From Escherichia coli (GTDB lineage: Bacteria; Pseudomonadota; Gammaproteobacteria; Enterobacterales; Enterobacteriaceae), in assembly GCF_003334255.1 (NCBI RefSeq), contig NZ_QOWU01000153.1: a DNA stretch of 1,616 nucleotides; one strand, written 5' to 3'. The notes under the pieces were generated by a model, which searched no databases, was not told the origin of the DNA, and saw only the letters and a program-made list of their open reading frames with translations. Position numbers and translations under genes: made by a program. Shown here in pieces: positions 1 through 1,616 of the stretch. Each line of letters begins with the position of its first letter. The first letter of the stretch is position 1.

Positions 1-351
1 AACCAGATGGACCCGGTGTACACGCCGGCGCGAAAAATCCACCTGTACCACTGCGACCATCGCGGCCTGCCGCTGGCGCTTGTCAGCACGGAAGGGGCAA
101 CAGAATGGTGCGCAGAATACGATGAATGGGGCAACCTGCTGAATGAAGAGAACCCGCATCAGCTGCAGCAGCTTATCCGCCAGCCGGGGCAGCAGTATGA
201 TGAGGAGTCCGGCCTGTATTACAACCGCCACCGCTATTATGACCCGCTGCAGGGGAGGTATATCACTCAGGATCCGATTGGGCTGAAGGGGGGATGGAAT
301 TTTTATCAGTATCCGCTGAATCCGGTTCAGTATATAGATTCAATGGGACTG
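1..351 (+). other. Conserved Rhs core C-terminal segment, ending in the PxxxxDPxGL-type demarcation/autoproteolysis motif ([10 protein letters not shown], nt 322-351)
   Basis: YD-repeat-like RYYDP (aa 76-80), DPIGL (aa 89-93) and PxxxxDxxGL (aa 106-115) are read directly from the translation. The segment is GC-rich (about 58% by hand count over nt 1-60), unlike everything downstream. Confidence 0.85.
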
Positions 352-810
352 GCATCAAAATATGGACACTTAAATAATGGCGGATATGGAGCGAGACCCA
401 ACAAACCGCCTACGCCCGATCCAAGTAAATTGCCGGACATAGCGAAACAATTAAGACTGCCATATCCTATTGACCAGGCCAGTAGTGCGCCTAATGTTTT
501 CAAAACATTCTTCAGAGCATTAAGCCCTTACGACTACACACTGTATTGCAGGAAGTGGGTAAAACCAAATCTGACTTGTACGCCACAGGATGATTCCCAG
601 TATCCAGGGATGGATACAAAGACAGCAAGTGATTACCTGCCACAGACAAATTGGCCAACAACTCAATTACCACCAGGATATACTTGTGCAGAACCCTATT
701 TATTCCCAGACATTAATAAACCCGATGGGCCAGCAACAGCAGGGATAGATGATTTGGGTGAAATTTTAGCTAAGATGAAACAGAGAACATCGAGAGGAAT
801 AAGAAAATGA
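1..810 (+). CDS. Rhs-family polymorphic toxin, 3' portion of the gene (5'-partial): conserved core terminus plus variable C-terminal toxin domain
   Basis: Frame 1 is open from nt 1 (aac cag precede the ATG at 7), so the listed ATG is an internal Met and the gene continues upstream. The translation ([12 protein letters not shown]...[47 protein letters not shown]) is the hallmark C-terminal end of the enterobacterial Rhs/YD-repeat core. Stop TGA at 808-810. Confidence 0.9.
352..810 (+). other. Variable Rhs C-terminal (CT) toxin domain, about 152 aa, activity not recognisable; Pro-rich linker followed by a roughly 110-aa C-terminal module
   Basis: It begins immediately after the DSMGL motif, where Rhs proteins carry their polymorphic toxin tips. 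Composition drops to about 45% GC (hand count over nt 421-480). A Pro-rich stretch ([30 protein letters not shown], aa 128-157) precedes a Cys-containing module (C181, C191, C227). I see no HNH, deaminase, ADP-ribosyltransferase or other familiar catalytic motif. Confidence 0.75.
792..799 (+). promoter_or_regulatory. Shine-Dalgarno / ribosome-binding site for the immunity ORF, embedded in the 3' end of the toxin ORF
   Basis: GAGAGGAA at 792-799, with the AGGA core ending 8 nt before the ATG at 807. Consistent with translational coupling. Confidence 0.5.
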
Positions 811-1601: not shown

Positions 1602-1616
1602 ATGGAACTTAAAAAA
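1602..1616 (+). CDS. Possible start of a downstream gene (3'-partial, only 5 codons visible: MELKK)
   Basis: ATG at 1602 preceded by an AAGGTGA RBS-like motif, after about 225 bp of AT-rich non-coding sequence. Too short to assess coding potential or identity. Confidence 0.3.

Follow-up and report, generated by a model that had tools for sequence, protein, structure and literature searches.

The proline-rich segment behind the predicted cleavage site of the Escherichia coli ybfO Rhs toxin is probably a flexible leader of the toxin tip

The 3' end of an Rhs gene of Escherichia coli raises the question of what kind of segment lies between a putative autoproteolytic cleavage site and the toxin that follows it. 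It could be a flexible spacer, a structured part of the toxin, a translocation module, or a stretch of no significance of its own. A megablast comparison with complete E. coli genomes identified the window, i.e., the whole stretch of 1,616 nucleotides that was analyzed, as the ybfO–ybfC–ybfQ terminus of the rhsC element, with 99.9% identity. It comprises the C-terminal 115 residues of an Rhs core, a toxin tip of 152 residues (CT), ybfC, and the first codons of an ISAs1-family transposase fragment. The toxin ORF (7..810, frame +1) contains the CT as residues 116-267, after DSMGL115. A minus-strand ORF at 327..503 was rejected as a mechanical ORF, as the plus-strand frame is conserved across genera and has a dN/dS below 1. 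The features of the window are listed in Table 1.

Table 1. Features of the ybfO–ybfC–ybfQ window, with the evidence on which each assignment is based (A4 and A5 are alignments of homologues).
Feature	Coordinates (nt)	Strand	Basis
C-terminal end of the Rhs core, ORF residues 1-115	1..351	+	PF03527 and NCBIfam matches, motif spacing, GC
Variable leader of the toxin tip, residues 116-150, with most of the Pro-rich segment, probably disordered	352..456	+	AF2, FoldIndex, entropy, dN/dS
Subfamily-conserved N-terminal toxin element, residues 151-172, [YH]P[ILV]D and predicted helix 164-172	457..522	+	A4, A5
Conserved toxin core, residues 173-235	523..711	+	A4/A5 columns, AF2, dN/dS
C-terminal part of the toxin, residues 236-267, and stop codon	712..810	+	A4, A5, AF2
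ybfC, presumed cognate immunity gene, 189 aa	807..1376	+	Annotation; YbfC-like neighbours in relatives
Start of ybfQ, ISAs1-family transposase fragment, closes the rhs element	1602..1616	+	Annotation of NZ_CP030240.1, locus 10602 = window 1602

The junction between the Rhs core and the toxin tip is marked by several signals. ORF residues 1-115 matched the Pfam family RHS (PF03527, E=7.7e-15), and the NCBIfam models TIGR03696 (E=3.1e-23) and RHS_core NF041261 (positions 1146-1261 of 1261) both stop at ORF residue ~115-117. Two motifs precede this point, i.e., D89-PIGL (nt 271-285) and, after 17 residues, P106-VQYI-D111-SMGL115 (nt 337-351). Rhs effectors contain two DPxGL-type motifs with 17 residues between them (PMC8636562), and the consensus at the cleavage site of the solved Rhs effectors is PxxxxDPxG[W/L/F] (PMC8765631). 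Both Asp residues of the aspartyl-autoprotease motifs are kept, and the second motif has a Ser for the Pro (DSMGL, not DPxGL). The variants DPMGL, DSLGL, DALGL and DAVGL occur in the family, i.e., DP, DS or DA, and, therefore, the Pro of the second motif seems to be dispensable in this lineage. Based on these motifs, cleavage is predicted to occur after L115. An in-frame ATG at 343-345 (M113, within DSMGL) would yield a CT-only product of 155 aa; no obvious Shine-Dalgarno sequence is located ahead of it, and an AFDB entry annotated as 'Rhs-like [E. coli]' has exactly this length of 155 aa.

The base composition changes at the same place. The GC content of 0.57-0.59 in the Rhs core drops to 0.44-0.47 from nt ~300-375, i.e., at the core/CT junction and upstream of the leader, and thus the leader is part of the exchangeable toxin/immunity cassette. 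The GC content is ~0.30 in ybfC and also in the intergenic stretch before ybfQ (1377-1601). Such GC steps are typical of a horizontally exchanged CT/immunity cassette. The preliminary description had placed the segment between the "Rhs cage exit" and the toxin. This wording is a misconception, because in the published Rhs structures the cleaved toxin remains within the cocoon, largely unfolded (PMC8765631, PMC8636562, PMC11461821).

The Pro-rich peptide was correctly assigned to ORF residues 128-157 in the preliminary description; its nucleotide position, given as 403-477, started 15 nt (five codons) too late and is in fact 388-477. The segment is indeed rich in Pro and in charged residues, with 8 Pro among its 30 residues (27%) and also 8 of 30 D/K/R. 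The typical frequency of Pro in proteomes is ~4.4%, and compared with this value 8 of 30 is a strong enrichment (P~3e-5). The CT as a whole has, however, 13.8% Pro, and 44% of the shuffles of the CT give 8 Pro in some window of 30 residues, so that the CT's own composition rules out the segment as a local statistical anomaly. A second Pro-rich stretch (7 of 30, residues 211-245) overlaps the conserved, confidently modelled core, and, thus, Pro-richness alone is not a marker for a linker. It is a property of the whole toxin and is not specific to the linker. At the DNA level, no tandem, direct or inverted repeat and no Rfam match was found beneath the segment that could have caused it.

The family to which the toxin tip belongs is small. 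An exhaustive phmmer search of 1.84 billion representative proteins revealed 28 clusters for the CT, and later word-indexed and profile searches led to few additions and to nothing past about 30 clusters. The members stem from Escherichia, Salmonella, Phytobacter and Citrobacter, from the Comamonadaceae (Acidovorax, Paracidovorax, Comamonas, Delftia) and from metagenomes, and many of the database entries are fragments. The CT is found at the end of full-length Rhs proteins in E. coli E2865 (1399 aa), Phytobacter (1383 aa) and Acidovorax (at least 1077 aa), and as an orphan cassette accompanied by an immunity gene in E. coli ER1709, in Comamonas and in metagenome loci. In the K-12-like strain ER1709 the upstream ORF, located 3' of rhsC-ybfB, is annotated as an N-terminally truncated Rhs fragment or partial pseudogene; in E2865 the identical CT terminates the full-length Rhs, and ybfC is the next gene. 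The ybfO-CT module was present as a single copy, with at least 95% identity, in 3571 of 5426 complete E. coli genomes, i.e., the YbfO-CT/YbfC pair occurs in about two thirds of them, K-12-type strains included.

Several further copies were seen in these searches. Phytobacter ursingii contains a second, decayed copy (L007, 3656-4291 and 4346-4774), in which the toxin is frameshifted near the C-terminus (…DLDAPRRTSNGRDR) and the YbfC-like gene is truncated to 142 aa. The toxin of this copy carries the label 'putative deoxyribonuclease RhsC', which no detectable domain supports; the label 'deoxyribonuclease RhsC' of a Phytobacter homologue (P0015) was likewise rejected because no nuclease domain is detectable. 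Two MAG contigs assigned to Flavobacterium psychrophilum and Candidatus Nanosynbacter (L003, L004) contain the region with 98-100% identity to E. coli, and a contig of an Erysipelotrichia MAG (L006) carries an enteric-type copy that is ~70% identical to the window. These three contigs probably stem from enterobacteria and were mis-binned, and they do not indicate a wider host range.

The comparison of the family members revealed that the region between the cleavage site and the toxin core is highly variable. The distance from the cleavage site to the SPYDY motif ranges from 44 to 59 aa, and the Pro content from 5% to 19%. Column entropies were 2.1-2.2 bits for the leader, 1.36 for the core and 1.92 for the C-terminal tail. 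In distant homologues the leader had an occupancy of 40-57%, compared with 82% for residues 151-172, and between subfamilies the sequence from the cleavage site to [YH]P[ILV]D or to the core could not be aligned. The leader is Pro-rich in the enteric proteins and in two further clusters (P0036, P0038), and it is charged and Pro-poor in three others (P0042, L008, L010); in a further four (P0040, P0053, P0057, L011) a different conserved pre-segment is located in its place. Acidovorax, for example, carries SGNAHQRAVKRGEAHRQASIDSQTAGMLEAPS in place of the Pro-rich stretch of E. coli. Across the ~30 homologue clusters from Enterobacteriaceae, Comamonadaceae and metagenomes the leader is thus often not Pro-rich. 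Other Rhs tips in the fetched loci lack a leader of this kind and are hydrophobic or globular-looking from their first residues on, and, therefore, the leader is specific for the ybfO-CT toxin family.

The variability does not mean that the leader drifts freely. A Nei-Gojobori comparison of E. coli and Phytobacter gave dN/dS values of 0.37 for residues 116-150 and 0.59 for the segment 128-157, and 0.18 for both the toxin core and the Rhs core; as this is one species pair with 30-35 codons for the leader regions, the values indicate only a trend, i.e., that the constraint on the leader is relaxed but not absent. Within the Enterobacteriaceae the identity was 68% for the leader, 79% for the core and 58% for the C-terminal tail. 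The higher identity of the leader compared with the tail and the dN/dS below 1 thus indicate some sequence-specific constraint, which could arise, for example, if the leader touches the wall of the cocoon, the immunity protein or the core of the toxin.

Structure prediction was performed twice with AF2. In the first run, with an alignment of 22 sequences, the pLDDT was 41-51 for CT 1-60, 77-86 for CT 61-120 and 52-60 for the C-terminal helix. In the second run, with 29 sequences, the corresponding values were 43-51 for CT 1-50, 72-85 for CT 61-120 and 60-65 for the C-terminal helix. Thus, only ORF residues 176-235 (CT 61-120) were modelled confidently, with three beta-strands (CT 64-72, 87-91 and 111-117). 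In both models a short helix of low confidence was seen at residues 144-149 (IAKQLR), a further one of low confidence (pLDDT 45-56) at CT 49/50-57 (residues 164-172), and an amphipathic C-terminal helix at CT 132-149 (residues 247-264, pLDDT 52-65). A confident fold over residues 128-157 was obtained in neither run. The alignments were shallow, and a low pLDDT from such alignments is weak evidence for disorder; moreover, the conserved block 151-172 and the C-terminal helix also had low values, and, therefore, the pLDDT alone cannot set the boundary of the leader, which is set by the alignment of homologues. The disorder-type indices (charge-hydropathy, TOP-IDP) were extreme in windows centered at residues ~126-141, with a FoldIndex minimum of -0.38, and the highest TOP-IDP values of the whole protein fall in the leader. 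Together with the family variability and the dN/dS values of 0.37-0.59, compared with 0.18 for the core, this agrees with the earlier proposal of a probably disordered spacer.

The core that is common to all subfamilies starts at S173 and has the pattern SPYDYTxYCxKW ... PGxDxKT..DY.P ... LPxGYxCxxPYxFP ... AxA[GD]xDD ... RK (A4, A5). P222, C227, A245 and D249 are invariant in 29 sequences, and P174, C181, W184, C191, P212, G224 and F233 are nearly invariant. Three conserved Cys residues, i.e., C181, C191 and C227, are located in the core. Upstream of it, [YH]-P-[ILV]-D (153-156), a PN.K.W element and the helix at ~164-172 are conserved in two of the three subfamilies; the third has a GKKPWQ element instead and its own pre-segment QKVS..ALFD..P..DLD.[QE]T. 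Distant matches start to align at CT 23-37 or at CT 51. The C-terminus of the toxin (733-807) is unusually conserved for a tail, with AxA[GD]xDD, the amphipathic helix 247-264 and a basic end. In nearly all members this end reads R-K or a closely related basic variant, and in A4 both R266 and K267 are invariant. The tail could serve in binding or be active on membranes.

The preliminary description had proposed that the folded catalytic module is the last 110 residues or so, starting at residue 158. A size of about 110-115 aa was found to be appropriate, and yet a boundary at 158 cuts a conserved block (LPYPIDQ, 151-157). Based on the alignments, the domain boundary should move to about residue 151, with the core of all subfamilies starting at S173. 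Constructs are thus best started at about 151 (LPYPID) or at 116, as a start at 158 would cut the [YH]P[ILV]D block, and searches for homologues are better performed with residues 151-267 or 173-267. The module as such stands, but the word "catalytic" is not retained, because the toxin core did not match any known enzyme family or fold. The CT gave no Pfam, NCBIfam or PADLOC match, and Pfam and NCBIfam were also negative for 22 aligned toxin tips; a Defensin_RK-1 hit on one member (E=0.056) was rejected as noise. The best E value in a sequence search of the PDB with the CT was 1.4, and the fold of the core matched nothing beyond its own family. Thus, neither by sequence nor by structure does the core fall into a characterized toxin family or fold. 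No functional study of ybfO/ybfC was found in the literature, and a survey of polymorphic toxins does not mention them.

The neighbouring gene gives information about the site of action. A YbfC-like gene lies directly 3' of the toxin gene in seven of seven loci, i.e., in E. coli, Phytobacter, Acidovorax, Comamonas (two copies) and two metagenome loci. YbfC had no Pfam, NCBIfam or PADLOC match. The N-terminus of all YbfC-like proteins is first basic and then hydrophobic, and two Cys (C30, C175) are invariant among them. In YbfC the signal-peptide-like N-terminus is encoded by about nt 807-866, and an Asp follows right after the putative site. The five YbfC-like sequences that were scored have a small-x-small site (VIA, AIA, SSA, ASA and AIA) and no hydrophobic segment beyond it. 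The (-3,-1) rule is a standard criterion for Sec signal peptides. As the YbfC-like leaders fit this rule, they are probably Sec signal peptides, and the immunity protein should be periplasmic. With a periplasmic immunity protein, the toxin, which has three conserved Cys, would also act in the periplasm, and this is its probable site of action. A likely periplasmic target changes the toxicity assay, for which a Sec or PelB signal would be used rather than cytoplasmic expression.

The stop codon of the toxin gene and the start codon of ybfC overlap in the ATGA at 807-810. Overlaps of 4-14 nt between toxin and immunity gene were also seen in Phytobacter, Acidovorax, Comamonas and the metagenome loci, and the overlap suggests that the translation of toxin and immunity gene may be coupled. 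In Comamonas (L009, 4324-5565) two YbfC-like genes (188 and 190 aa) stand in tandem behind an orphan toxin gene. Signal-type leaders are present in both products, and the arrangement may be an immunity duplication or the remnant of a second cassette.

Concerning delivery, the N-terminus of the full-length Phytobacter Rhs matched DUF6531 (2.2e-18) and, weakly, PAAR_motif (E=0.036), and a vgrG-like gene (Gp5_C) adjoins an orphan array in two loci (L014, L015). The vgrG linkage is consistent with delivery of the ybfO-type Rhs toxins by a T6SS; as the PAAR match is marginal and gives no confident assignment, this route is putative. For a periplasmic toxin delivered by a T6SS, a module for translocation across the inner membrane would probably not be needed.

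Against this background, the proposed roles of the segment can be weighed. The preliminary description had considered that it could be a pre-toxin or translocation segment. In its strongest form this would be a dedicated module like those of CdiA-CT proteins or colicins, which engages a protein of the target cell for membrane crossing. The leader is placed right after the release site and is under modest purifying selection, as such a module might be, and there is precedent for unstructured segments rich in Pro and charges, which take part in the translocation of colicins and, in TonB, span the periplasm. However, the leader comprises only ~35 aa, contains no Pfam or NCBIfam domain and is not kept across the subfamilies. 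It also never occurs with another toxin core: every database match that covers the leader also has the ybfO-type toxin core or is a truncated fragment, and among these matches it did not recur upstream of a different toxin domain. In addition, the exported-type immunity proteins, with signal-peptide-like leaders and a Cys pair in all seven loci, point to a periplasmic target, and the vgrG next to Rhs loci of the family is consistent with T6SS delivery. An autonomous pre-toxin or translocation domain is thus not supported, and the dedicated module is the least probable of the explanations, with hardly any weight. A further explanation is that the Pro-richness has no significance of its own, i.e., that it reflects the composition of the whole toxin and that the segment is, in K-12-type genomes, the least conserved part of an unexpressed orphan relic. 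The shuffling result agrees with this, the ER1709 gene is annotated as a partial pseudogene that lacks the N-terminus, and fragments are frequent among the database entries. In E2865, though, a full-length Rhs terminates in the identical CT, the module is kept at high identity in the 3571 genomes mentioned above, and the reading frame is kept across genera with a dN/dS well below 1, which makes a mere relic very unlikely.

It was also considered that the segment is structured and belongs to the toxin fold itself, for example as a polyproline-II arm and a short helix that pack on the beta core or form part of a surface for YbfC binding, so that the functional unit would be the whole CT of 152 aa. 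This would explain the 68% identity in enteric bacteria and the dN/dS below 1; the helix at 144-149 was predicted in both AF2 models, and LPYPIDQ at the end of the segment lies in a conserved block. Furthermore, the third subfamily has a conserved pre-segment of its own, so that pre-core regions are not free to drift, and the confidently modelled core of only ~60 aa is small for an independent domain. Yet the segment had a pLDDT of 43-51 in both AF2 runs, and its sequence, Pro content and length show no conservation among subfamilies whose core and immunity family are the same. A structured part of the toxin is, therefore, unlikely.

Taken together, the segment is a variable linker of an ordinary kind in the tip of a polymorphic toxin, and it is probably best described as the flexible, weakly constrained N-terminal leader of this Rhs tip, which travels with the toxin/immunity cassette and not with the Rhs core. 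Aspartyl autoproteolysis behind DSMGL115 would turn the leader into the free N-terminus of the toxin polypeptide. This polypeptide would be held largely unfolded in the Rhs cocoon, with the leader as the new N-terminus inside the cage. Most likely the leader would provide ~35 residues of slack between the cleavage and plug site on one side and YPID, the helix 164-172 and the core from S173 on the other, and it may be the first part to thread out on delivery.

The linker itself matters only practically, in that it sets the boundaries of constructs. The wider point is that the toxin and YbfC, with its signal-peptide-like leader, form a conserved, uncharacterized pair, which is probably directed at the periplasm. 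It is a tentative possibility, still on the doubtful side, that YbfO-CT/YbfC represent an uncharacterized family of small (~115 aa), Cys-containing periplasmic Rhs toxins without detectable relatives in sequence or fold, and that the lineage-specific disordered leader may thread the toxin out of the cocoon. If this were true, E. coli would harbor an unexplored envelope-directed toxin activity and, at the same time, a simple system for studying how Rhs tips leave the cage.

Several known systems can be compared with the ybfO toxin. The PT domains of polymorphic toxins (PT-VENN, PT-HINT, DUF637; Zhang et al. 2012, PMC3482391) also lie upstream of the toxin domain, as the leader does. However, they are conserved modules that are detectable with profiles, whereas the Pro-rich stretch of ybfO matches no profile, and a PT-like role is played here by the Rhs-associated core (TIGR03696), which ends at residue 115. 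The cytoplasm-entry domains of CdiA-CT proteins are likewise located between a release or demarcation motif and the toxic domain. They are folded, common to different toxins and required for crossing of the inner membrane; in contrast, the leader is short, of low complexity, modelled with low confidence, associated with one toxin core, and belongs to a toxin with a probable periplasmic target.

The next group comprises the periplasmic T6SS pairs, e.g., the Tae/Tai amidases and their immunity proteins (Tai3 is mentioned in PMC7216683, Tae5 in bioRxiv 10.1101/2020.02.18.954545). The likeness consists in an immunity protein with a signal-type leader, and the Cys residues of the ybfO toxin fit an oxidizing compartment. 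Unlike the Tae/Tai-type effectors, the ybfO toxin has no likeness in sequence or fold to amidases, muramidases, lipases or pore formers, and it lacks the conserved His that a Cys-His active site of the papain or NlpC/P60 type needs.

A further comparison is with the C-terminal toxin regions (HVR/CT) of T6SS Rhs effectors and of the TcC subunits of Tc toxins, e.g., RhsA of P. protegens, Rhs1 of P. laumondii and Tse15 of A. baumannii. The differences are the second motif DSMGL, a core that has no detectable relative among the characterized toxins, and an immunity protein that is apparently exported. The Rhs-associated core with two motifs 17 residues apart is shared with these proteins, and so are the predicted cleavage that would free a tip of ~150 aa and the immunity gene immediately downstream. 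A largely unfolded tip inside the cocoon has been seen in the solved structures of the RhsA/Rhs1/Tse15 type, and by analogy the ybfO Rhs is predicted to be cleaved and to encapsulate its tip, leader included, in the same way.
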